DNA from: Faecousia sp.
GTDB taxonomy: Bacteria; Bacillota; Clostridia; Oscillospirales; Oscillospiraceae
DNA length: 64,000 bases
Direction: 5' to 3'
Assembly: GCA_045599455.1 (NCBI GenBank)
Contig: JAZRVX010000131.1
Location: 12,186 to 76,185 of the forward strand
Numbering within the stretch: position 1 is the stretch's first letter; every line of letters starts with the position of its first letter. Shown here one piece after another: positions 6,460 to 24,098 of the stretch. Made by a program: the position numbers and the translations under genes. The notes beneath the pieces were generated by a model that saw nothing but the letters and a program-made list of their open reading frames with translations, ran no database searches and had not been told where the DNA came from.

Positions 6460-8557
6460 TAAGCAGAAGCTTTTCTCTTGTCTGACAGGTAAACAGAATC
6501 ATTTGTTTAGATGTACTGATTTCCGCAAGCAAAGAGAGTGTATTTGCAAGTCGTTCGTCGTCGAAGCGGACAAAGGCATCATCAAAAATCATAGGCGCAT
6601 CCGGCGCGAGAATCTTTGCAACTGCCAGACGAACTGCAACATAGATTTGGTCAATAGTACCTTCGCTTCGATAGTTCAATTCGCGAATGACTGTTTCATC
6701 CGAATTCCCGGCAGTAATGGAAAAATCCTGATTTAGCAGAATTTTGTTGTAGCGAAGTTCTGTCATAGTTTGCAGATAATCCTGAGCTTGACGCGTGATT
6801 GCAGGGGTAAATCGACGATGCAGATCCTCAACGGCTTCCCGATGAATTTGAAGACCAAATAAAACCGCTTTTTCAAGGTTCCGGAGTCTCTCAATTTTCT
6901 CACCCAAACTCTGCTTTTGTTCTATTAGTGTTTGTTTCGCGTCCAATAAATTCTTTCGATACTGTAAAAGCTGCAGTTCTCCTTTGATTCTTTCAATCTC
7001 TGAAGATTCATGGCGGATTCTCTTTTCCGTTTCATCCAATCCATAAATCAGTTCATCGTCCTCCGAGGTTAAAACCGGTTCCGCAGCCATTTTTGAAATT
7101 ATATCATAGTTTTCACGAGCTTTTTTCAAATCATGCTTTGCATCCTCAAACTGTTCAAATGAAGAAACTACTTGAAAATAATACTCCACTTCCCTGCCCT
7201 GTAAGAGGCTGCTTCTACGCTGCTCCAGTTCCGCAATGTTTCGTCTGACCTCATCCATGGCTCTATGGTGAGATTTTAGTCCGAGATTATATTCGTTCCA
7301 TAGTGCGTCCAGTTTTAACGCAGCGAGCTCCCACTTTCGTGTATTTTCAGACCCGTAGCGTGTCTGCAGTGTGTCTCTCTTCTTGCGAGAGGAAACAAGT
7401 ATCGAAAGACTTAGTACAGTACCGACAATAAAAATCAACAATGAGCACAATGAAAGCACCGTATTTCCCGTATTAAGATACACCGAAACACCTGCTGCCA
7501 AGTTCAAAGCAGCTAACGAAAGAACCGCAAGCCATGTCGGGCGTTTTGTTTTTCTATAGCTCTCTATATCTTTTTCGACCTGCTGTCTTGCTTCACCGGG
7601 AGTTAAACCCGCGTATGCAGAACTAATTTCAAACTCAGGAACGGGCGTATTCATAAAAACATTTAGCTCTGATAACCGGCTACTCACTTCACGAATGTCA
7701 CGCAGAGTAGTGCGTGCAAAATCAGCATCGGGAAAACCTATGCACTTTTCTTCCAGTGCATACACTCTTGCCTGCTCATCACACACAGCATCCATTGCCC
7801 GCTGTACTTCTTCAGCATCCTTCGTGGCTTTCAGATTTGCCAGATGAATTTTATGATTATGTAGTTCTCTGTATGATGTTTCTGCTGCGCACAATTGATT
7901 GGAAAGATTACGCTCTGAACATTCCAGTTCCTCCATTTCCCGAATCTGCTCAGTTACAGCACGATAATCGTTCTGTGCCTGTTGAATCAAACCGTTGCTG
8001 CGATTGGACAATCGGTTCCTGAGAGCTTTCAGCCCCGCTTCCAGGGCAGCGGCATCTCCGGATTCCTCACCGGTCGTAACCAAATCGTTTAATCGTCTGC
8101 GAAGGGCATCATCCTCGGTAATGGGCATTTCAGACATACGAACAAATCCGGAGCGGCGGAAAACACTCTGCTCCACACCCAGGAGCATTTGTCCGCAGTT
8201 ATCCCCCCTCAACTCAGGGATATCAATTCCCGTATCTGTCTCATAGGCACGAAACGAGCCAAGAGGAATTCTTCCTTTTGAACTTCTCTCAATCGTAATG
8301 TTTTTTCCACAGAATTCCAGATCAATCCTGCCCTCCATCGGCTTACCGTTCCAAGGCAGGTATCGCTCTTTATCCGCAAGAATTTGTTTTGTTGAGCGTG
8401 CTTTGGTATCAAGCCCATAAAACATCGCAAGAATAAAGGCAGACCATGTGCTCTTTCCCCATTCATTGGGTGCCTCAACAATATTCAACCCCGTTTGAAA
8501 TTGAAGACGAGCGTCATCCAGCTTTCCAAAAGTAGCTTGCATGGAACGAATAATCAC
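6440..8557 (-). CDS. SbcC/YhaN-like AAA ATPase with coiled coil and central TM hairpin
   Basis: N-terminal Walker A NIVEAPNEWGKST, a long heptad-rich middle, and C-terminal Walker B PMIFDDAFVRFDD. Two hydrophobic segments: LAVLSLAALNLAAGVSVYL and VLSLCSLLIFIVGTVLSLSILV. GTG 8557 overlaps the upstream stop (GTGA). Confidence 0.75.
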   Translation of the reverse strand: MIIRSMQATFGKLDDARLQFQTGLNIVEAPNEWGKSTWSAFILAMFYGLDTKARSTKQILADKERYLPWNGKPMEGRIDLEFCGKNITIERSSKGRIPLGSFRAYETDTGIDIPELRGDNCGQMLLGVEQSVFRRSGFVRMSEMPITEDDALRRRLNDLVTTGEESGDAAALEAGLKALRNRLSNRSNGLIQQAQNDYRAVTEQIREMEELECSERNLSNQLCAAETSYRELHNHKIHLANLKATKDAEEVQRAMDAVCDEQARVYALEEKCIGFPDADFARTTLRDIREVSSRLSELNVFMNTPVPEFEISSAYAGLTPGEARQQVEKDIESYRKTKRPTWLAVLSLAALNLAAGVSVYLNTGNTVLSLCSLLIFIVGTVLSLSILVSSRKKRDTLQTRYGSENTRKWELAALKLDALWNEYNLGLKSHHRAMDEVRRNIAELEQRRSSLLQGREVEYYFQVVSSFEQFEDAKHDLKKARENYDIISKMAAEPVLTSEDDELIYGLDETEKRIRHESSEIERIKGELQLLQYRKNLLDAKQTLIEQKQSLGEKIERLRNLEKAVLFGLQIHREAVEDLHRRFTPAITRQAQDYLQTMTELRYNKILLNQDFSITAGNSDETVIRELNYRSEGTIDQIYVAVRLAVAKILAPDAPMIFDDAFVRFDDERLANTLSLLAEISTSKQMILFTCQTREKLLLNKKPRS

Positions 8558-14563: not shown

Positions 14564-14639
14564 GGACGATTAGCTCAGCTGGTAGAGCATGCGCTTGACG
14601 TGCGCAGGGTCAGCGGTTCGAGTCCGTTATCGTCCACCA
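14564..14639 (+). tRNA. tRNA-Val (anticodon GAC), CCA encoded
   Basis: Cloverleaf folded by hand. Acceptor GGACGAT/ATCGTCC, D arm GCTC-AGCTGGTA-GAGC, anticodon stem TGCGC/GCGCA with loop TTGACGT, T arm AGCGG-TTCGAGT-CCGTT, then ACCA. Confidence 0.95.
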
Positions 14640-14670: not shown

Positions 14671-14680
14671 ATAAATTTTG

Positions 14681-14708
14681 CCGGGGCTTGAATTAATTCA
14701 AGCCCCGG
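14681..14708. terminator. perfect 28-nt palindrome at 3' end of the GT2-PilZ operon
   Basis: ccggggcttgaatt/aattcaagccccgg. It contains the stop codon of the GT2-PilZ gene (14698-14700). The T-rich tract is only on the plus-strand side. Confidence 0.5.
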
Positions 14709-16926
14709 TATTTTGTATCATTTTCTTTTCCAAATTCTTTTGCGGAATAATATCTGAAATTGCAACATAATCGGGCTGTATAATCTCATAAACATTTTTA
14801 CGGATTCTACTTTTTCTACCTGTAATGATTATTCCGTTTTCCAGTACCAACTCAATCTCCTCAGGAAGATATCGGCTCTGAGCTACTCGAAAACAGTTGT
14901 AATTATAATCCTTCAGGGTTACTTTCCCGGATATACTTTGTGGACATTTCAATTCTTGAGATATGCTGACTCTGGGAAGCTTTCTGCGCTGAAATACCGG
15001 TGCACTTCCCCGCCCATTGCCGTTTACCAGCAAATCATCAAAAGCTCCGCTTGCTCCACGCAGTGTCTGCGGCAATCCCGGTGAACGATCATAAACAATT
15101 TGAAAATAATCCTTCTTACATTCACCATAATCATGGATGCGGAAAGCATATATCCATCGATTTTCTTGTTGATTCACATAAACAATGGATACTTTTATTT
15201 CAGCTTTCAATTGATTTTCCTTTATTTTCAGTGTAGTCAATGCATCCGGGAGAATATATACAGGCTCTTCAAAGCTCACTGCGAGTCCTGAATCCGACAA
15301 ATTGATTGCATTCCCGTGATAGCTTCCGTTATCTGTGCTGACAGTGACTTCACATAGCGCCCGCAGTCGGTGCTCCTTTCTTCTGATTTCTCTGCCATCT
15401 ACAAAGAAAAGTGCCATAACCAGATAATACATATTGCCAATTAGCCAAAATAAAACTACGACCGGCTGGATGGAATTGCTTTCAAACATTTTCACAATAC
15501 ATTTCGCAACTGCGTATACCGAAAGGCACAACAGCATCGCAAAGGGCAGCATATATACAGCATCCCGCCGATTTTTTCCTGTTGCAATGTTCTTTTCGGA
15601 AACATGAAACTTTTTCATAGAAATTCCGACGGTCTCCAGTAATACGGGTACAAGCATAAAAGGAAATAACGCCGTCTCATAAACACCTGTCCATCTTGTA
15701 TTCCTTATATTACGGCTTAAAGCACGCAGCGCCAAATTGGAAGAGATAAACATCGGAAGCCAGAAAATAAGCACTTCTTGCAATGTGCACCGGATAACCA
15801 TAATATCAAAGGCGGCATACAGAATCGGGCTCATAATGTACACCAATCTTTTTAAGGGTGCATACCAGTACCAGACAGATGCCCAATAGTTCAGTTTCTG
15901 GCGAAGGGAAAGCTTTCTCGATAACAAAATGTGCAATTTCCTTCCGCTTTGAATCACCCCTCTTGCCCAACGAACTCTCTGGCGAATCAGTGCAGTCATA
16001 TCGGTCACCGACAATCCACTTGCAAGTGGTTCGTCAATTGCAAGACTGACAAATCCTGCCTTCTGAATCAGAATCCCCGTTGCAAAATCTTCTGTAATAG
16101 AGTCCGTGTAAAATCCACCGACAGCATCCAACGCCGCTCGACTTAAAACCGTGTTGGAGCCGCCGTAGATGACTGAGTTACTCTTTGTTCTTGCAATCTG
16201 AATATCCCGATAAAAATAGTCCTGCTCATTGGGAATTCTTTCTTCGGAATACAAATTAAACTGGAACACATCGGGATTATAAAAACTTTGAGGACTCTGC
16301 ACAAAGCCAAGTTCTATACGCTTTTTCTCTCCCCTGCTTAGATTCTTTCGTTCCGCGTCGATGAAATAAGGTATTGTTTTCATTAAAAATGTGCTTCTCG
16401 GTATCATGTCCGCATCAAAAGTCGCAATATACGGTGAAGAAGAGTTCCTGAGTGCATAATTCAGATTCCCGGCTTTTGCCCCGGTTCTGTCCAATCTGGA
16501 TAAATAATGAACGCCAAAACTCAAAGCCAGATTTCGCATTTCTTCTCGATTTCCGTCATCGCAAAGATATATATGCACTTTCTGCTTATCCGGATAATCC
16601 ATATGGCAGCACCCATTGATGGTTTTATACACCAGCTCTGGTGCTTCGTTATATGTCACCACAAATACATCTACATCCGGATATGTTTGTCCGGATATAT
16701 CCGGACAAACATATCCGTTACAGCGGTACATACTGCGATAGTGAATGATTGCCTCAAAAAAGCCCAACGCCTCGATGCAAAGTAACGAAGCACCGACAAT
16801 CACAGAAAGCAGGCCGTATCCAAAAGGGATGGTAAAAAGAATACGCCATAAAATATAGCTGACAGAAAACAGAATATTCAGCATAAATATCAGCTTATCT
16901 ATGTACAATTTTCCGTTTTTTATCAT
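14698..16926 (-). CDS. processive family-2 glycosyltransferase with C-terminal PilZ domain (BcsA-like exopolysaccharide synthase)
   Basis: Multi-TM protein. GT2 motifs DVFVVTYNE, CDDGN, FDADM, SITEDFATG (TED), IRQRVRWARG (QxxRW, ~15961-15995) and FHVSEK (FxVTxK-like). PilZ motifs RKEHR (RxxxR, 15367-15381) and NLSDSG ((D/N)xSxxG, 15286-15303). Confidence 0.85.
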   Translation of the reverse strand: MIKNGKLYIDKLIFMLNILFSVSYILWRILFTIPFGYGLLSVIVGASLLCIEALGFFEAIIHYRSMYRCNGYVCPDISGQTYPDVDVFVVTYNEAPELVYKTINGCCHMDYPDKQKVHIYLCDDGNREEMRNLALSFGVHYLSRLDRTGAKAGNLNYALRNSSSPYIATFDADMIPRSTFLMKTIPYFIDAERKNLSRGEKKRIELGFVQSPQSFYNPDVFQFNLYSEERIPNEQDYFYRDIQIARTKSNSVIYGGSNTVLSRAALDAVGGFYTDSITEDFATGILIQKAGFVSLAIDEPLASGLSVTDMTALIRQRVRWARGVIQSGRKLHILLSRKLSLRQKLNYWASVWYWYAPLKRLVYIMSPILYAAFDIMVIRCTLQEVLIFWLPMFISSNLALRALSRNIRNTRWTGVYETALFPFMLVPVLLETVGISMKKFHVSEKNIATGKNRRDAVYMLPFAMLLCLSVYAVAKCIVKMFESNSIQPVVVLFWLIGNMYYLVMALFFVDGREIRRKEHRLRALCEVTVSTDNGSYHGNAINLSDSGLAVSFEEPVYILPDALTTLKIKENQLKAEIKVSIVYVNQQENRWIYAFRIHDYGECKKDYFQIVYDRSPGLPQTLRGASGAFDDLLVNGNGRGSAPVFQRRKLPRVSISQELKCPQSISGKVTLKDYNYNCFRVAQSRYLPEEIELVLENGIIITGRKSRIRKNVYEIIQPDYVAISDIIPQKNLEKKMIQNTGA

Positions 16927-18098
16927 ATTCCATCCTCCTTATAGAATTGGAAAGAATTCTCATTCAGATTAAACGGATATACTTCAAAGATAATATAGTC
17001 GTAGGTTTTATCCTTTATTACAGTTTCAAGATTTACAGTCTTTCCAACCTCCAGATTGTAAATTGTATCGATTTTCCAAAACATCGGAGCAAGGAAACAA
17101 ATAACGGGACTAAAATATGAGTCATGTATAATCAAAGCTGTCCGATTATTTCTGGCAGTTAGATTGACAATTCTATTCTGCTCCTTAATTCCATCCAGAT
17201 ATACACTGTATGAAGATCGTTTATAAATATCTTTCTCTTCCAAATATTCCAGATTGATAAGTGTTTGCTTTATATCTCCACGCGTTATTTCTTCTTTATC
17301 TCCCGAAAGAACCATTCGTTCATAGGTACCGAAAAACTTGGGACACAAAACCGAAAACTCATCCACACCCGAAAAAGCTCTTCCCGCCTTGCGCCCCATA
17401 GAACCAAGCATATTTTTATCGGCAGATAACTCATCATAATAATTTAGATTTAAATAATAATCTGTCGGATCAAGATTATCTCCAAACTGTTTATGAATCG
17501 TTTCTGCCAACTGTTTTGTAGCTTCAAAAGCCGTTTTGACTGTCCAATGGTGATCCGTTTTGTAAAATTCAGCATTATCCATATCGGACAAGTCCAGTGT
17601 CTTTACCTCGAACCGATTCAGATACATTAACAATTCATCTATCTTATCACCGGGATAATTTAACCATTCCGTATCATTGGTTGTAGATTTCACCAAGTCA
17701 TATTTTCCCGGCGGCATAACAAACAGTAGCTTTGTTTCCTTAGATTCCGCAAACTTCTGAAGCCTTGCTATCCGCTGTGCGAAGGATAAAACCGAAATAT
17801 CGTCATTTCGATAAAAACCACTGTAGTGCAAATATCCATTAGAATCTTTGAAAAAAGCAAAATCAGAGATTTCTTGTTTCCCCAGAAGTGACTGAAATGA
17901 TGAAAACCACTCCAAAAGACTCATACGAAAAGGTAAGCTTTCGTAGTATTCCTCCTGCCGAAATGGACAATTCTGAAAAATTCTCTGTGCAAAATATACG
18001 CAAGAATAGACCCACATTGGGAGCAATGATAAAATCAACATGACTGAAAAAACCATCTGCATCGAAACATATCGAACCTTCGCCGTCACTGTATGCAT
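16923..18098 (-). CDS. DHHW-family protein (AlgJ/AlgX-like SGNH polysaccharide O-acetyltransferase component)
   Basis: N-terminal TM MVFSVMLILSLLPMWVY and a literal DHHW motif in FYKTDHHWTVKTAFEA. ATG 18098 has GAGG 7 nt upstream. ATGA overlap with the downstream synthase gene. Confidence 0.75.
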   Translation of the reverse strand: MHTVTAKVRYVSMQMVFSVMLILSLLPMWVYSCVYFAQRIFQNCPFRQEEYYESLPFRMSLLEWFSSFQSLLGKQEISDFAFFKDSNGYLHYSGFYRNDDISVLSFAQRIARLQKFAESKETKLLFVMPPGKYDLVKSTTNDTEWLNYPGDKIDELLMYLNRFEVKTLDLSDMDNAEFYKTDHHWTVKTAFEATKQLAETIHKQFGDNLDPTDYYLNLNYYDELSADKNMLGSMGRKAGRAFSGVDEFSVLCPKFFGTYERMVLSGDKEEITRGDIKQTLINLEYLEEKDIYKRSSYSVYLDGIKEQNRIVNLTARNNRTALIIHDSYFSPVICFLAPMFWKIDTIYNLEVGKTVNLETVIKDKTYDYIIFEVYPFNLNENSFQFYKEDGI

Positions 18099-18107
18099 CA
18101 ACAAACC

Positions 18108-19505
18108 TCAGAAGTCAAAATAGATAAAGGGATTGTAAGAGCCGTTTACCAGATAACTAATACTAAGCCATGTAATAAGCACCATGCATATTCCTGTCAA
18201 TCCTCGGACTACAATATACTCATTTGCTAACGGGAATCTTTTCCTAATCGGGAAGAGGCATATCAGACCAATTACAAAAAAGAATAAATTCTCTTTCACG
18301 AGCATACAAGCCAGATTGCTGAAAAAACCGTTATAGTTAAGTCCGAACATATTCCGAAAAAAAATTCCTGCCTGATATAAATCTTTGGAACGAAAAAGAA
18401 CCCATCCGAAATTAACTATCAGTAGTGTATATGCTCTCTTCAAACCGGTTGACGAAAGGTTATCCGGGAATCCTGTTAGTCGCTCCAGAAGTTGAAAGCA
18501 GAAATAATAGACGCCCCAAAAAATAAAAGTCCAGTTCGCACCATGCCAAAGACCGGTTAATAGCCATACAATCAAAAGATTGCGAATGGTTCTATCCATA
18601 CTTACATTGCGATTGCCCCCCAGGGGGATATATACATACTCCCGGAACCAATTTGTCAAAGAGATGTGCCACCGCGACCAGAAATCACGAATTGAAAGTG
18701 CATAGTATGGGTACATAAAATTTTCGGGAATTAAAAACCCAAAGCATTTACCCAGTCCGATTGCCATATCCGAGTATCCCGAGAAGTCATAATAAATTTG
18801 AAGTGAATAGGCAATACTTCCAACCCATGCCAAGGTAGCCGGAACCGGATAGTAGTCCGTCCCGATAGAAGACCAGTTAAAAACCTTATCGGCAATCGCA
18901 CCGAAATTATTCGCAAGAAGAATTTTTTTAGAAAAGCCTATGGAAAAGCGAAACAATCCTTTTGTGAATAAGTCAAAGCTTTCTCTACGGGAATCTATCT
19001 GATTTGATACATCCGAGTATTTCAAAATCGGGCCGGCAATCAGCTGTGGAAAAAATGACAGATACAATCCGGTCTTAAATAATCCCGGGGGACTTTCCGG
19101 AGTACGGTACATATCTACGAGCAAACTGATAGCCTGAAAAGTGTAAAACGAAATTCCGATGGGTAGGTGAATCTCGGAAATCTGTGGAAATCCAGCCGTG
19201 GAACTTGCAAAGTTATAATACTTGAAAACAAATAATCCGAATAAATTTACACTGACTGCAAGCCAAAGTATTATACGCTTTCGTTTCAAATCTTGTACTT
19301 TATATAATAAATTTGAAAAACCTGAATTCATGACAATATTTGCAATCAACAGCCAAACATATTGAGGTTCACCATAGGCGTAAAATAAAATGCTTGCAAT
19401 AAGAAGAACGGAATTGGATAACCACCGCACACGAAATGATGCAAAGTACATCATAAAACCCGTTGGTAAAAACAGGAATAAAAACTCTAAACTTGAAAAA
19501 AGCAT
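18108..19505 (-). CDS. MBOAT-family membrane O-acyltransferase (AlgI/DltB/PatA-like)
   Basis: 465-aa polytopic protein. The conserved MBOAT histidine region is FWSRWHISLTNWFREYVYIPLGGNR. AGGTGG RBS. Confidence 0.9.
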   Translation of the reverse strand: MLFSSLEFLFLFLPTGFMMYFASFRVRWLSNSVLLIASILFYAYGEPQYVWLLIANIVMNSGFSNLLYKVQDLKRKRIILWLAVSVNLFGLFVFKYYNFASSTAGFPQISEIHLPIGISFYTFQAISLLVDMYRTPESPPGLFKTGLYLSFFPQLIAGPILKYSDVSNQIDSRRESFDLFTKGLFRFSIGFSKKILLANNFGAIADKVFNWSSIGTDYYPVPATLAWVGSIAYSLQIYYDFSGYSDMAIGLGKCFGFLIPENFMYPYYALSIRDFWSRWHISLTNWFREYVYIPLGGNRNVSMDRTIRNLLIVWLLTGLWHGANWTFIFWGVYYFCFQLLERLTGFPDNLSSTGLKRAYTLLIVNFGWVLFRSKDLYQAGIFFRNMFGLNYNGFFSNLACMLVKENLFFFVIGLICLFPIRKRFPLANEYIVVRGLTGICMVLITWLSISYLVNGSYNPFIYFDF

Positions 19506-19512
19506 ATTCCAC

Positions 19513-21111
19513 CTAGATTCTGCGCATCACGATAATTCCTGTCAAAATTATTATGAAAAACGAAAGATAGAAAAAAGCCTGTCCCTGTGAGAATATCGAC
19601 GAGTCCACATTGGCTTCTCGCAGTAAATTACTGAGTCCCTCCTGTATATAAGCACCATGCCGCGCAAGATAAACCTTTATAATACGCAGCTCTTGCTGAT
19701 AATCGGTATTGAATCGGGTCAATGTTTCACCATCAATCGTATAGGGCTTCAACACATAGTTCCTCCCGTTACGGGTCTGCGGACTTTCGTAATCATCCTT
19801 CCACCGATACCATTCGCGAACTTGAGCCGAGTTCAGATATTGTGTGGCTTCTTCAATCAGCATATTTATATAGTTATCCGACAGGAAGTGTCTTCTAAGC
19901 TCTGCGTAGCGTTTTTTCAAGAATTTTACAAAGGAACGGTCTTTCACAAGCTCCGTGTAAAATGTTCTTGTTTGGAATGCAATGGACTCAGGGTTCATTT
20001 CTTCTGCATAGTAATTATTCATCGCCTGGTCAAAATCCCAAACCGGACCGATATTCAGTTTTCCTCCGGGTGATTTATAATAATAAGTCGAATGCAGCCC
20101 TGCATCATAATTCCCAAAGAATTCGTTCACCAAAAAATAATCAATGAAGCTCTCTCTGTCAATTACTTTAGGGTATGTGAGAAATACATCCTTTTTATCA
20201 GAATAAATTACCTGTTCCACGGAGGAAAAATCTTTTTCAATATAGGAAATAATTTCCTCATTCAGTTTACCGGATGTTGGATATTTGATTCCCATCCATG
20301 TGTCCGTAAATCCATTAACTCGGCCGTATGTTTCAAGCATCGTATCAAAATGCGTATATCGGTCTCTGCGGAGAATATAGCCAGTATAATGATTCTTTTC
20401 GTCGTACTCAGGAATGTCAACTTGTTGCTCTCCTTTGGAAACCGCACTTTGCAGGAGGTAAACTCCCATATATTTTGCCATCCCGCCTGTTTCTTTTAGA
20501 ATTACTTCACAGAATCTGCACTCCGGTGCAAATGCGCTGCCGCCAATCTCCCATGCAATACGATAGGCGAGGTAATTTCGGAGCATGCTTTTATCCGCCA
20601 AGCTCCCGCACAACACCCAGCGCTCTCCTTTTTCCATATCAAGAAGAGAATGAGCCTTCTCCGATTTTAGATAATACTGCGGTTTGTCGAAAGCTATCGA
20701 AGTATGCCCACGCCGTTTGGCACAAATTGAGATACGCATTGCAGGAGTGTTCTTCAAATATGCCCTTCGTCCGCTCGGTTCGATGATTTCAAGGGATCCA
20801 GTTACCCACGGATTAACTGAATCATCCACAGTTTCATTTCCATGTGAAAAGGACTTATATAACGGAGGCTCGTTTTCAAAAGACAGCACCACAAGGGGAA
20901 GATTGCTTGAGAACAAGGCATCCGCATAGTATTCCTCATTCAGGTGCACTAAAGGATCCGTTGCGCTTTCATCTTTTTGTAATGTAGGATAGCGATAAGA
21001 TTGACTTGTTTCTTTTGCAATCGTCTCCCCGAGCTGCGCAGCCAAGAGTAACCACGCCGCCAACACAAAACATTTGCAAACTTTTCCTGCCATTTTATTG
21101 ATTAATTTCAT
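19513..21111 (-). CDS. CotH kinase-family protein, predicted extracytoplasmic with C-terminal membrane anchor
   Basis: Signal/anchor CFVLAAWLLLAAQLG and C-terminal TM FFYLSFFIIILTGIIVM. CotH-type segments LRNYLAYRIAWEIG, HSTYYYKSPGGKLNIGPVWDFDQAMNNYY. The start could instead be ATG 21093. Confidence 0.8.
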   Translation of the reverse strand: MKLINKMAGKVCKCFVLAAWLLLAAQLGETIAKETSQSYRYPTLQKDESATDPLVHLNEEYYADALFSSNLPLVVLSFENEPPLYKSFSHGNETVDDSVNPWVTGSLEIIEPSGRRAYLKNTPAMRISICAKRRGHTSIAFDKPQYYLKSEKAHSLLDMEKGERWVLCGSLADKSMLRNYLAYRIAWEIGGSAFAPECRFCEVILKETGGMAKYMGVYLLQSAVSKGEQQVDIPEYDEKNHYTGYILRRDRYTHFDTMLETYGRVNGFTDTWMGIKYPTSGKLNEEIISYIEKDFSSVEQVIYSDKKDVFLTYPKVIDRESFIDYFLVNEFFGNYDAGLHSTYYYKSPGGKLNIGPVWDFDQAMNNYYAEEMNPESIAFQTRTFYTELVKDRSFVKFLKKRYAELRRHFLSDNYINMLIEEATQYLNSAQVREWYRWKDDYESPQTRNGRNYVLKPYTIDGETLTRFNTDYQQELRIIKVYLARHGAYIQEGLSNLLREANVDSSIFSQGQAFFYLSFFIIILTGIIVMRRI

Positions 21112-21778
21112 CCGGCTGTTTTACAAGACTGACAGAACGCACGCCTTCCATTATCGACAGCCGGTTTAAGCAGGATCCACTCTTCTCTGCATCCGCAAGT
21201 ACACGGTCGCAAAGCTCATAAATCAGCTCACAGGGATTGCCATTTTCTCCGGTAGTTTGGAGGCGGATAACCGCTTTTTGTAAAAACATAGCCTCAACAC
21301 AGTGCATTACATCCTCTGCCATTTCAGGATCTACATGAATAATCAGAATGAGACGGCTATTCTCCTTTACAAAACCAAAGAGCACCAAAAATATGAAAAT
21401 TGCGGTTGTGCCCATGGCCGCAATCAAATAATCCGAAACGCCGCAGCATATACCGATTGCAATCGCCCAGAATATATATGCTGTATCCCGAGTATCTTTC
21501 ACAGCTGTTCGGAATCGGACTATGGACAGCGCACCAACCATGCCGAGTGAGAGGGCAATATTATTCCCGATTACATTCATAACGAGAGTCGTTATCAATG
21601 TAAGCATGACAAGTGTCATATTGAATCGACGACTGTAAACACTGCCGCCGTGGGAAATACGATAAGATATGTACAAGACACATGCCAGTAAAAATGAAAT
21701 CAGAAAGTTTAATAACAGCTGCTTAGGCGAAAGCTCCCCATAGGTATTGTACAGAAGATTATATATCTCACTTTTCAT
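21095..21778 (-). CDS. DUF4956-type polytopic membrane protein
   Basis: About 4 TM segments (LLLNFLISFLLACVLYI, LVMLTLITTLVMNVIG, ALSLGMVGALSIVRFRTAVKDTRD, IFWAIAIGICCG) plus a soluble tail. It occupies the usual position between the VTC and CotH genes. ATG 21778 lies 1 nt after the upstream stop. Confidence 0.7.
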   Translation of the reverse strand: MKSEIYNLLYNTYGELSPKQLLLNFLISFLLACVLYISYRISHGGSVYSRRFNMTLVMLTLITTLVMNVIGNNIALSLGMVGALSIVRFRTAVKDTRDTAYIFWAIAIGICCGVSDYLIAAMGTTAIFIFLVLFGFVKENSRLILIIHVDPEMAEDVMHCVEAMFLQKAVIRLQTTGENGNPCELIYELCDRVLADAEKSGSCLNRLSIMEGVRSVSLVKQPDEINQ

Positions 21779-21779
21779 A

Positions 21780-22475
21780 CTAAGCACTCTCCCCTTTTGT
21801 AATCATGCGCGCTCTCATGTATTTACTGCACGAAACTCTGCACTCATCCGATACCGATACCGCCTGTTTGATATCCGATGTCAGAAACTCATTAAACTTA
21901 ACTTCCATTGTAATTTCCCCGGGAGCAGAAACGGGGTACATAATAATGTCAGAATTAAAAAGCTGGAAATTGCTCTCAGTTGCGTATATCTCTCTGTCAA
22001 ATGTAATTCTGGTATCATTAAGCAGGCCGCAAAACGCCTCTCTTCTATACTCAATAATAACCTTCGGGCGGAGTAGCTGTGCTTTGAACATATAATAAAG
22101 CCACGGACATAACACCTCATGCCGCGATAACAGGAAATCCGCTTTACCTGCTATCAGCTGCATAGCCTCTGTTTTTGAAATAATGATAGAAAACTTTTTC
22201 TGATTGTCACCGCTTTTTTGCTTAATCTCAAGCTTAGCTGTTTTGTCAGATGGACTGTAAATTCTGAGACGAATTTTTCTTCTATCATAAAGACCGTCTT
22301 CTTTGTCGCAAAAATCCTTGTCATAAGGCGTGTCAAAGTAGAGGGAACGAACATGATACCCCCCGATATTCTGATGTACATCCGGTAATGTAAACGGAAG
22401 CAATGCGGCGCGTATTCGGCAATACTGCAGTTCGGTAACAGCGTATTTTTGCTCTTTTCTCGAAACTTCCGACAT
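21780..22475 (-). CDS. VTC-domain protein (triphosphate-tunnel, polyphosphate-polymerase-like)
   Basis: EQKYAV, HVRSLYFDTP, RRKIRLRIY, AKLEIKQKSG, IIEYRREAF and TRITFDREI form alternating basic/acidic beta-strand motifs typical of CYTH/VTC tunnel enzymes. No TM segment. GGGAGGA RBS. Confidence 0.75.
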   Translation of the reverse strand: MSEVSRKEQKYAVTELQYCRIRAALLPFTLPDVHQNIGGYHVRSLYFDTPYDKDFCDKEDGLYDRRKIRLRIYSPSDKTAKLEIKQKSGDNQKKFSIIISKTEAMQLIAGKADFLLSRHEVLCPWLYYMFKAQLLRPKVIIEYRREAFCGLLNDTRITFDREIYATESNFQLFNSDIIMYPVSAPGEITMEVKFNEFLTSDIKQAVSVSDECRVSCSKYMRARMITKGESA

Positions 22476-22985
22476 TTAAGCGTCCTCCCTGTCAGAAAGA
22501 AGCAATAAATCCTCATAGGTATAGAACTGTCTTTTATTCCTGGTACGCAGATGATTGCACACTGTCAGAATCACAATGCACAGTCCCAGAGACACAATAC
22601 TCAACAAATAATTATGATAAAAGCACAAAACAGCAGCTGGAAAACAGCAGCAGGAAAGTACTTTCATCATAGCATGATACTCCTTTTGAATTTTACGGTT
22701 CAATAATCTTTCTATAGTTTCCAGAACCAAAACTCCAAGAAACGCGAATATCGTAAATCCAAGTACGCAAAGCTGAGCGTCTACGCCGATGTTTCTGCAA
22801 ACAAAGACCCCGGAGCTACCTAATAGCAAGATAAAAACGAAATAAAGGAAAGCTCTTATAATTGATGTTCCAAGAAAACACGGAAGCAAAGAAAGTGCAC
22901 AAAGTACACCTGGTAATAATTTCCGGTTCAGCAAAACATTTAACAAGTTGCTCTGATAAGAAATCAGATTATGCAGCAATCTCAT
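22476..22985 (-). CDS. hypothetical 4-TM membrane protein, first gene of operon
   Basis: No motif I recognise. Hydrophobic segments GVLCALSLLPCFLG, LYFVFILLLGSSGVFV, LCVLGFTIFAFLGVLVL and SIVSLGLCIVILTV. ATG 22985 has GGTGA 6 nt upstream. Its stop abuts the VTC start. Confidence 0.5.
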   Translation of the reverse strand: MRLLHNLISYQSNLLNVLLNRKLLPGVLCALSLLPCFLGTSIIRAFLYFVFILLLGSSGVFVCRNIGVDAQLCVLGFTIFAFLGVLVLETIERLLNRKIQKEYHAMMKVLSCCCFPAAVLCFYHNYLLSIVSLGLCIVILTVCNHLRTRNKRQFYTYEDLLLLSDREDA

Positions 22986-23108
22986 ATTCATTCACCTCTT
23001 TCAACAATCGAAACAATACTCCATTTCGGATGCGAAAAAAAGCGAAGCAAGGTTCGTACATTTCACAGCATCGAATATGTTTAATTTCCTATATGCACTA
23101 AGTTTTTC

Positions 23109-23167: not shown

Positions 23168-23244
23168 GGGCCTTTAGCTCAGTTGGTCAGAGCCTCCGGC
23201 TCATAACCGGATAGTCCTGGGTTCGAGTCCCCGAAGGCCCACCA
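23168..23244 (+). tRNA. tRNA with CAU anticodon (Met by anticodon; resembles lysidine-modified tRNA-Ile2), CCA encoded
   Basis: Acceptor GGGCCTT/AAGGCCC, anticodon stem TCCGG/CCGGA, loop CTCATAA. G1-C72 is paired, so it is not an initiator. The GG.CCTTTAGCTCAGTTGGT.AGAGC...GGCTCATAACC pattern is like Bacillus tRNA-Ile(CAU). Confidence 0.9.
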
Positions 23245-23274
23245 GTTTACTTAGGTAATTTACCTTTTAGATAT

Positions 23275-23350
<76 letters not shown>

Positions 23351-23630: not shown

Positions 23631-24098
23631 CTAGTCCAACTCGTCCTCGTCAAAAGTGAACTCAAGCGTTTCGCCACACTTGGGGCAAGTCATAGAACCG
23701 GCCTCAAGGGTCTCCTCGTCAAAAGTAATCACTTCGCCGCAAGCGCACTGGACTTCATAGATAGTGGTATCCTCATCGCCGAAGTCGAATCCTTCCTCAT
23801 ACTCCTCGTCTTCATCTTCGTCGTAATCATCATCCAGCTCATCATAGTCGTCAAAATCGTCGTAGTCCTCATCGTCCTCATCAAGGATATAATCCTCGAT
23901 GGCATCCAGATCTTCTTCGATTTCGTCCAGCTCGTCAGAAATAGCAATGGTGGTATCTTCAATATCCGTGACCTTCTTGCATACATCGCCAAGCAGGTCA
24001 ACGATTGCAGAAATCATCTTGCCCTCATCGGACTCGGTATTCAGCTTCAGGCCATCCATAAGACCCTTCAAATAGGCGGATCTCTCAGAGATAGTCAT
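23631..24098 (-). CDS. highly acidic protein with C-terminal zinc-ribbon-like Cys cluster
   Basis: The central ~70 aa are almost only D/E/Y (DEDDEDYDDFDDYDELDDDYDEDEDEEYEE). The C-terminus is VQCACGEVITFDEETLEAGSMTCPKCGETLEF. AGGAGG RBS. Lies immediately downstream of efp. Confidence 0.6.
   Translation of the reverse strand: MTISERSAYLKGLMDGLKLNTESDEGKMISAIVDLLGDVCKKVTDIEDTTIAISDELDEIEEDLDAIEDYILDEDDEDYDDFDDYDELDDDYDEDEDEEYEEGFDFGDEDTTIYEVQCACGEVITFDEETLEAGSMTCPKCGETLEFTFDEDELD

Follow-up and report, generated by a model that had tools for sequence, protein, structure and literature searches.

The stretch of DNA considered here, referred to below as the window, comprises 64,000 nt from Faecousia sp. 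(assembly GCA_045599455.1, contig JAZRVX010000131.1, positions 12,186-76,185 of the forward strand) and contains seven closely packed open reading frames (ORFs), all on the minus strand and together spanning 14698-22991 in the ORF list of the window. Read from the upstream end, they encode a polytopic membrane protein, a VTC-domain protein, a membrane protein of the DUF4956 family, a CotH-family kinase, an MBOAT acyltransferase, an AlgX/SGNH-like protein and a synthase that combines a glycosyltransferase family 2 (GT2) domain with a PilZ domain. The last three form the polymer half of the locus and resemble genes of the ccs locus, and the VTC, DUF4956 and CotH genes (hereafter the trio) belong to families known as neighbours of the Pel operon. 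We are confident that the seven genes represent a conserved operon of Ccs type carrying a trio of Pel type. An earlier examination of the same DNA without database searches (the sequence-only reading) had proposed the linkage of these two halves, and had placed the seven ORFs at positions with which the ORF list agrees.

Protein families were scored by Pfam and NCBIfam models. The GT2, PilZ, MBOAT, CotH, DUF4956 and VTC assignments, made initially from the letters and translations, held in these profile hidden Markov model (HMM) searches, with Pfam supporting six of the seven genes. The synthase matched the GT2 (4.7e-16), PilZ (3.3e-9) and Cellulose_synt (4e-7) models of Pfam; in an alignment of eight sequences its GT2 motifs were invariant (D123 D124, D171xD173, T278 E279 D280 and Q316xxR319 W320). 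Both motifs by which PilZ domains bind cyclic di-GMP (c-di-GMP), RxxxR (R516-R520) and [DN]xSxxG (N542-S544-G547), are present, and R516, R520, S544 and G547 were likewise invariant in the eight sequences. By its motifs, the protein is a putative processive synthase of CcsA/BcsA type, which would make and export its polymer under c-di-GMP gating. The GG[DE]EF motif was found in no ORF of at least 200 aa in the window. The MBOAT protein (PF03062, 4.5e-29) also matched the DltB model (1.4e-42), under the equivalog cut-off, and carries the conserved RWHIS histidine; it is the likely equivalent of CcsH, WssH or PatA and would move an acetyl group over the membrane. The AlgX/SGNH-like protein possesses an N-terminal transmembrane (TM) helix and matched the ALGX family (PF16822, 9e-9). 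It was originally called a DHHW protein, a name justified by the literal motif (within KTDHHWTV) and not by the family model, as no match above threshold to the Pfam DHHW family was obtained for the window protein; its orthologue in locus L004 gave a faint match to that family. Together with the MBOAT protein, it would act as the O-acetyltransferase partner equivalent to CcsI, WssI or PatB.

Within the trio, the VTC protein (PF09359, 3.7e-33) is predicted to be soluble, with a triphosphate-tunnel fold, and consists of the VTC domain only, without an SPX domain and without a Vtc1-type membrane domain. As a single sequence it found no match in the PDB, and a 13-sequence profile matched the catalytic domain of Vtc4 (3G3Q, 1.5e-8). 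The Vtc4 residues K200, R264, R266, K281, Y359 and R361, which bind triphosphate and are required for polyphosphate synthesis (bioRxiv 10.1101/2023.01.27.525886), correspond to K10, R69, R71, K85, Y143 and R145 of the window protein, all invariant in the 13 sequences; Vtc4 R196, E279 and R373 likewise align to residues invariant in the bacterial VTC set. The protein is a putative Vtc4-like polyphosphate polymerase, predicted to be cytoplasmic.

The DUF4956 protein (PF16316, 1.7e-14) shows a distant affinity to MgtC, with a match to PF02308 of 5e-6 (27.3 bits, under the 31.4-bit gathering score) and to the MgtC/SapB model PRK09977 of 2e-4 (21 bits against a cut-off of 214). Its AlphaFold2 model (predicted local distance difference test, pLDDT, 71) has five helices followed by a beta-alpha-beta-beta-alpha-beta ACT-like domain, for which the best PDB matches in Foldseek were the C-terminal ACT-like domains of MgtC from Mycobacterium tuberculosis and Pseudomonas aeruginosa (2LQJ and 7QA5), at an E-value of only 4e-3 and a template-modelling score of 0.6. 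The predicted architecture is that of MgtC, multiple TM helices with a C-terminal ACT-like domain. An alignment of 26 homologues shows an invariant basic stretch, SIVRFRTAxKDxRDT, which the positive-inside rule assigns to the cytoplasmic face.

The CotH protein matched PF08757 over the full model (2.3e-42). Sequence searches of the PDB, with the single sequence and with a profile, gave no match up to E = 10; the AlphaFold2 model (pLDDT 69, predicted template-modelling score 0.70) found as its top Foldseek matches the CotH kinase of Bacillus cereus (5JD9/5JDA, E 6e-11, template-modelling score 0.72, probability 1.0). Both ends of the protein are conserved in the alignment: the N-terminus is basic and runs into a hydrophobic signal/TM helix, and the C-terminus has a TM anchor with RRI behind it. 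Because of this arrangement the kinase domain is predicted to face the cell exterior. The database copy of the gene is annotated with 510 aa and thereby loses the greater part of the predicted signal/TM helix, although Met7 does not vary among relatives.

The first gene product, with 4-5 TM helices, matched no Pfam or NCBIfam model and was taken in the sequence-only reading for an orphan. It is not one: an iterative HMM joins it (E 5.7e-28 for the window protein) with the ORF upstream of VTC in 60 related loci, and the alignment of this family shows a conserved motif in the C-terminal cytoplasmic tail, F-x-T-Y-[DE]-[DE]-L, which reads FYTYEDLL in the window. A Pfam search of the family gave a weak TM7S3_TM198 match only, in 3 of 17 members.

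The linkage of the two halves was followed through other genomes from two starting points. CotH has hundreds of full-length relatives at 44-54% identity, and a CotH-anchored scan with one genome per GTDB species gave 142 relatives, the best 80 of which were fetched with 10-kb flanks; the ORFs of these 80 loci were searched with the window proteins. VTC, DUF4956, CotH, MBOAT, ALGX and GT2-PilZ genes are all present in every one of the 70 loci with enough flank, and the gene order of the window is kept in 67 of them, the exceptions being one locus with a split DUF4956 gene and two with the synthase shifted upstream. CotH identity among the best 80 species loci ranges from 36 to 51%, and the carriers belong to Lachnospiraceae, Clostridium, Anaerovoracaceae and Oscillospiraceae. 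They include Butyrivibrio hungatei NK4A153, Oribacterium sp. WCC10, Clostridium lacusfryxellense, C. pascui, C. vincentii DSM 10228 and Anaerophilus nitritogenes, along with metagenome-assembled genomes (MAGs) of Anaerovoracaceae and Oscillospiraceae. A Lachnospiraceae MAG and the complete genome of Sinanaerobacter sp. ZZT-01, both at 46-47% CotH identity, share the order membrane protein, VTC, DUF4956, CotH, small ORF, MBOAT, ALGX, GT2-PilZ and a gene of glycoside hydrolase family 5 (GH5). In C. vincentii (locus L083), whose genome was among those from which the ccs locus was defined (PMC7710045), the trio lies directly upstream of MBOAT, DHHW, a metallo-beta-lactamase-fold gene, synthase and GH5.

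The second scan, of metagenomes, was seeded with the synthase alignment and gave 80 loci at 42-63% identity; the trio is present in 33 of these, 15 have no trio within 7 kb on both sides, and 32 could not be scored for want of length. Where each flank reaches 7 kb or more (28 loci), 13 show the window layout, 10 are of the ccsZABHI type and 5 have the synthase alone. Loci of the ccsZABHI type are arranged Z-A-[bitopic protein of 354-397 aa]-H-I, with CcsB and without the trio, and CcsB-like genes were found in this set only in loci without the trio; their products gave no Pfam match. This synthase family therefore occurs in at least three locus layouts, of which the trio type is the one without CcsB, and the existence of at least three layouts of 'Ccs' loci matters for predicting the chemistry of biofilm matrices in gut and rumen Clostridia. 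CotH and the first gene were also considered as diverged forms of CcsB and ruled out (hhalign probability at most ~2%).

The gene-neighbourhood search, which the sequence-only reading had named as the test of its own proposal, thus found the physical link conserved from both anchors. That the halves are unrelated neighbours, juxtaposed by chance or in this strain only, could draw on the existence of each half alone (ccsZABHI loci without the trio, Pel loci with it) and on nothing further; the co-occurrence of six genes throughout the scorable species loci, their almost uniform order, the spread of the arrangement over several families at 36-51% protein identity, and gene junctions that overlap or almost abut, leave it with hardly any credence, and we regard a chance juxtaposition as effectively refuted by the conservation data.

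Around this constant core, four optional genes were recorded over the 80 CotH-anchored loci, namely GH5 (46 loci), a small ORF after CotH (17), the metallo-beta-lactamase-fold gene (17) and a second VTC-DUF4956 pair (11), none of which is present in the window. The second, diverged pair lies downstream of the synthase (L041, 16878-20248; also L036, L039, L047, L052, L061, L062, L078 and L085), and in L036, L041 and L052 it is followed by a 640-aa CotH with Fn3_assoc, CHB_HEX_C_1 and InlB B-repeat domains. Because the second pair is followed by a second, larger CotH in the inspected loci, the trio appears to behave as a unit, duplicated with a differently decorated kinase. In Butyrivibrio, an extra VTC-DUF4956 pair was observed upstream of the operon (L027, 2449-5226; L059, 4240-5648); a Pfam run in L027 placed a GH3 glycoside hydrolase before the pair and no CotH after it, and the pair can therefore occur kinase-free.

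Some further features of the related loci were noted. Clostridium-type operons possess, between the ALGX gene and the synthase, a gene for a protein of about 280 aa that combines an N-terminal TM helix with a metallo-beta-lactamase fold (PF00753, 7.6e-17; L083, 6335-7177, and L064, L067, L070, L072, L073, L076, L077, L081, L082 and L084), which was also detected at L078 (14206-15099) and L085 (8684-9547). It is absent from the window and from most Lachnospiraceae loci; the idea that it and the first-gene family exclude each other was dropped, as four loci match both. In the Lachnospiraceae MAG of locus L001, an ECF-like sigma factor gene (Sigma70_r2/r4_2; 7184-7816) stands just upstream of the operon, where the window has tRNAs, and directly downstream (18313-21620) are genes for an 814-aa polysaccharide deacetylase and a chitin-synthase-like GT2, which resemble a second synthase-dependent polymer system. 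The split DUF4956 gene (L053, 9401-9962) forms two ORFs in an otherwise intact operon and reflects either a frameshift/pseudogene or an assembly error. Two MAGs labelled 'uncultured Bacteroides sp.' (L042 and L048) carry a complete operon of clostridial type with a CotH of 42-43% identity, for which mis-binning or mislabelling is more likely than a genuine Bacteroides origin.

In the window itself, the coordinates of the operon and of the features around it are given in Table 1. The overlapping or near-abutting junctions of the sequence-only reading were borne out, with gaps of 0-9 nt or short overlaps throughout. The first gene and the VTC gene follow each other without a gap (0 nt), and VTC and DUF4956 are 1 nt apart, or overlap by 8 nt if the GTG start of DUF4956 is taken (the database copy of this gene begins at the ATG at 21778 and has 227 aa). 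DUF4956 and CotH overlap by 17 nt, a 1-nt gap if the conserved Met7 of CotH is the start; CotH and MBOAT are separated by 7 nt, MBOAT and ALGX by 3-9 nt depending on the ALGX start, and ALGX and the synthase share a 4-nt ATGA stop/start overlap. As the genes are so tightly packed and internal signals are absent, the seven fit a single operon, in support of the one transcription unit proposed before. A Shine-Dalgarno-like AAGAGGTG precedes the first gene, and the 176-nt intergenic leader between this gene and the tRNA pair yielded no element in an Rfam search, including no c-di-GMP riboswitch.

Table 1. Coordinates of the operon genes and adjacent features in the window
Feature	Position	Strand	Length, family or remark
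First gene, polytopic membrane protein	22476..22991	-	171 aa; ORF call, family HMM
VTC-domain protein	21780..22475	-	231 aa; PF09359
DUF4956 membrane protein	21095..21778 or 21787	-	227 aa from ATG, or 230 aa; PF16316
CotH-family kinase	19513..21111	-	532 aa; PF08757
MBOAT acyltransferase	18108..19505	-	465 aa; PF03062
AlgX/SGNH-like protein	16923..18104 (or start 18098)	-	393 aa; PF16822 ALGX
GT2-PilZ synthase	14698..16926	-	742 aa; GT2, PilZ and Cellulose_synt models
Hairpin	14679..14710		perfect G+C-rich palindrome overlapping the synthase stop codon
tRNA-Val(GAC)	14564..14639	+	convergent with the operon
tRNA-Met(CAU) and tRNA-Trp(CCA)	23168..23350	+	divergent from the operon

The hairpin at the 3' end of the operon, taken initially for its terminator, is a real structure of 14 pairs, 8 of them G-C. 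Its T-run, however, lies on the plus strand, and the terminator scan scores it on that strand only, i.e. for the convergent tRNA-Val and not for the operon; it could possibly serve as a bidirectional terminator between the two. Terminator-like matches in the region are not enriched over shuffled sequence (14 found against 8.7 +/- 3.3 expected). All three bracketing tRNA genes (Val, CAU and Trp) were confirmed.

The flanks consist of housekeeping genes, with rplU-prp-rpmA-obg on one side and efp and an M24 peptidase gene on the other. In two close relatives (L167 and L169, Obg 86-88% identical), the synteny on the obg side and the tRNA-Val beside rplU are kept, other genes follow beyond and the operon is not found there, so that tRNA-Val marks a break of synteny. 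The operon thus sits in a variable region and is probably accessory. The sequence-only reading had suspected accessory DNA from the bracketing tRNAs, for which the support is modest: the difference between relatives beyond tRNA-Val agrees with it, and neither an integrase nor a tRNA-derived direct repeat was found around the operon in the window. A stronger form of this idea, in which a genomic island carrying the operon inserted recently at a tRNA gene, seems to us somewhat improbable, though worth serious consideration. The G+C content of the operon (0.37-0.45) is lower than that of the flanks (0.45-0.52); more than 100 protein clusters, one of them named Oscillospiraceae, share 85-88% identity with Obg, and only four relatives of CotH exceed 54% identity. 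These figures and the different genes beyond tRNA-Val in relatives would suit an island. Set against it are the lack of any integrase, direct repeat of a tRNA fragment or mobile-element gene around the operon, and the fact that the comparison with relatives covers the obg side only. As to the flanks themselves, L167 has two tandem tRNA-Val(GAC) genes (8108-8286) where the window has one, and the three genomes compared all differ in gene content from there on. The window also encodes, between efp and the tRNA pair (23631-24098, minus strand), an extremely acidic protein of 155 aa with a C-terminal zinc-ribbon-like CxC...CPKC motif and no Pfam match.

The sequence-only reading had called the CotH/DUF4956/VTC neighbourhood uncharacterised, which the literature contradicts. 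In streptococci, clostridia and bifidobacteria, Whitfield et al. (2020) found pelDEADAFG directly adjoined by a set of accessory genes, namely cotH, DUF4956 and one for a polyphosphate polymerase, and suggested that Pel is regulated through protein phosphorylation (PMC7112168). In Streptococcus intermedius, SIR_1594-1592 encode a predicted secreted CotH, a cytoplasmic VTC-like enzyme and an MgtC-like protein of four TM helices with an ACT domain; deletion of the MgtC-like gene (the DUF4956 homologue) led to more Pel and deletion of cotH to less, and each of the two deletions cut aggregation by more than 50% (PMC12345266).

As a whole, the locus is in our view best explained, with better than even probability, as a surface-polysaccharide operon of the Ccs kind equipped with a membrane-spanning, phosphate-handling trio. 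From the gene content we infer the following scheme. On binding of c-di-GMP to PilZ, the synthase would polymerise and extrude a beta-glucan, cellulose or a close variant, and the MBOAT and AlgX/DHHW proteins would O-acetylate the emerging chain, in the manner of ccsA/H/I and wssH/I. This lineage has, instead of CcsB, four genes, those of the membrane protein, VTC, DUF4956 and CotH. Inside the cell, the VTC protein would make polyphosphate from ATP; the DUF4956 protein may dock this polyphosphate and then either pass phosphate or polyphosphate outward or signal its presence; and the ecto-CotH may phosphorylate the growing polymer or else a protein that belongs to the surface or associates with the synthase, by which the yield of the polymer or its retention on the cell would be altered. 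The specific relay from VTC through DUF4956 to CotH is a tentative part of this scheme, and we would not be surprised to see it fail. A polymer that is phosphorylated or decorated with polyphosphate, as suggested from the outset, is plausible. Less likely again than the relay is a version in which the trio would be a bacterial counterpart of the eukaryotic VTC machine joined to an ecto-kinase, where polyphosphate made in the cytoplasm passes via the MgtC-like protein to the cell surface and is used by CotH on the polysaccharide, or is attached to it directly; CotH would then use polyphosphate instead of scarce extracellular ATP. If true, the trio would be a portable module that creates a new class of phosphorylated exopolysaccharides on at least two unrelated synthase systems, Pel and the Ccs type.

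Several points on the phosphate side weigh against this scheme. The plausible counterparts of Vtc4 E426, S457 and K458, of which E426 concerns the metal and K458 distinguishes active Vtc4 from Vtc2/3 (bioRxiv 10.1101/2023.01.27.525886), are matched by motif only, in the conserved LEVK (E191, K193) and SKY (S217, K218), and the alignment of a C-terminal VTC profile with Vtc4 was not significant. MgtC, the closest relative of DUF4956, is a regulator and no channel. In CotH, D336 and D361 are conserved (D361 also in paralogues) and lie 25 residues apart; in B. subtilis CotH the catalytic and metal-binding Asp are D228 and D251, with a spacing of 23 (PMC7821199), and from spacing and conservation only, D336 and D361 are likely the same two residues. 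The characterised Bacillus CotH has been described as a Ser/Thr protein kinase whose targets are proteins of the spore coat (PMC7821199); in the 5JDA structure Mg2+/AMP is bound, and neither a polyphosphate donor nor a sugar substrate is reported. Finally, the VTC deletion mutant of S. intermedius still aggregated, which argues against a strictly linear pathway from VTC through DUF4956 to CotH for aggregation, and its authors favour cytoplasmic polyphosphate (PMC12345266).

The main rival to a membrane-spanning phosphate-handling unit is a purely regulatory trio, which would set the amount of polymer and add nothing to it: CotH would phosphorylate proteins of the synthase complex or of the surface, and the MgtC-like and VTC proteins would adjust intracellular ATP, phosphate or polyphosphate. 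We hold this for a real but minority possibility. It is in line with the protein phosphorylation proposed for Pel (PMC7112168), with the protein-kinase activity of Bacillus CotH (PMC7821199), with the regulation of ATP synthase and PhoR by MgtC (as cited in PMC12345266), and with the opposite effects of the DUF4956-homologue and cotH deletions on Pel levels, which look regulatory (PMC12345266). It sits less well with a kinase domain predicted outside the cell, away from the cytoplasmic GT2 and PilZ domains, and with the service of the same trio to polymer systems of differing chemistry, which come with regulators of their own (PilZ in the present case); the tight coupling of VTC, DUF4956 and CotH, and their duplication as a unit, suggest one physical machine. 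We favour the phosphate-handling trio.

On the polymer side, the likeness to Ccs has weak spots as well. The window has no CcsB-type bitopic gene, and a GH5 gene of the CcsZ type, present in 46 of the 80 relatives, was not found anywhere in its 64 kb. The best NCBIfam model for the synthase was TIGR03030 CelA (8e-111), at 371 bits under the 699-bit equivalog cut-off. In the window synthase, IYGGS replaces the FFCGS of BcsA. A related clostridial GT2-PilZ protein, that of R. ilealis, makes mixed-linkage glucan, and the clostridial homologues form three clades (PMC10374906). With the synthase under the CelA cut-off and such a relative at hand, cellulose as the product is not established. These observations leave an appreciable, if lesser, chance that the product is other than cellulose, either a mixed-linkage beta-1,3;1,4-glucan or another GT2 product, a question of the product only, on which neither view of the trio depends. 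Orthologous loci include that of C. vincentii, grouped with putative CcsA (PMC7710045, PMC10374906), and the neighbouring hydrolase of relatives is GH5, the CAZy family of the cellulose-specific CcsZ; both speak for a product close to cellulose. The operon probably makes a cellulose-like polymer.

Compared with known systems, the polymer half comes closest to ccsZABHI (Scott et al. 2020, PMC7710045), with which it shares the GT2-PilZ synthase, the MBOAT protein (CcsH) and the DHHW/AlgX-type acetyltransferase (CcsI); GH5 (CcsZ) follows the synthase in the 46 related loci that possess it, and is absent in the window. The window differs in its order, H-I-A and not Z-A-B-H-I, in the lack of CcsB and in four extra upstream genes; in the bioRxiv version of the Ccs paper (10.1101/837344), the word CotH does not occur. 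The wss operon of P. fluorescens, which is for acetylated cellulose, and AlgI/AlgJ/AlgX of alginate synthesis offer the same combination of a c-di-GMP-gated synthase with an MBOAT protein and an SGNH-like enzyme that acetylates the chain as it emerges, whereas the window is Gram-positive, has no BcsB, BcsC or AlgF, and adds the phosphate-related trio. With the yeast VTC complex (Vtc4/Vtc3/Vtc1) the window shares a homologous catalytic tunnel domain with the basic tunnel residues kept, and the genetic coupling of VTC to a membrane protein recalls the coupled synthesis and translocation of yeast; SPX and the Vtc1-type TM domain are missing, and the membrane partner is of the unrelated MgtC-like family. 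The C. perfringens locus NELoc-2 (Lepp et al. 2010, PMC2879425) unites in one cluster VTC, membrane 'tubulin/FtsZ' genes of 222-226 aa, CotH and a GT2 'chitin synthase'. Compared by description, its 'tubulin' genes occupy the DUF4956 position, and a sigma factor gene (CP4_0458) heads the cluster, as in L001; its GT2 is of another type (466 aa) and its companions differ, including a HEAT-repeat protein.

The nearest counterpart of the trio is that of the Pel loci, with the same three families, the same predicted locations and contiguity with an operon for a synthase-dependent exopolysaccharide. In the window, the trio is joined to a GT2-PilZ synthase of BcsA/CcsA type and its O-acetylation pair and not to pelDEADAFG; the order is VTC-DUF4956-CotH upstream of the synthase, as opposed to CotH-VTC-DUF4956 downstream in Pel loci; CotH has a C-terminal TM anchor in place of an FN3 domain; and the DUF4832 hydrolase of Pel loci is lacking. 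No pel gene is present in the window operon, nor do pel families occur in L001 and L004, the loci that were annotated. The sequence-only reading knew of no described link between its two halves; this needs narrowing, since the trio with a polysaccharide synthase is known for Pel, and stands for the link to a Ccs/BcsA-type synthase, which to our knowledge is undescribed. The mBio 2025 paper did not find synteny of the trio outside the Pel locus (PMC12345266), and the present loci contradict this negative. So far the trio has been regarded as an accessory peculiar to Pel, and speculation about it has focused on the virulence of streptococci; its presence with an acetylating, c-di-GMP-gated glucan synthase in over a hundred loci of gut and rumen clostridia shifts the question to what generic service it would render to any synthase-dependent polymer and not to Pel alone. 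The answer bears on the function of bacterial VTC domains and of secreted CotH kinases, and on how extracytoplasmic phosphorylation is fuelled in Gram-positives. Culturable carriers exist in Butyrivibrio hungatei, Oribacterium, C. vincentii, C. pascui and Sinanaerobacter, and Pel and the Ccs type provide two independent systems in which the trio can be compared.

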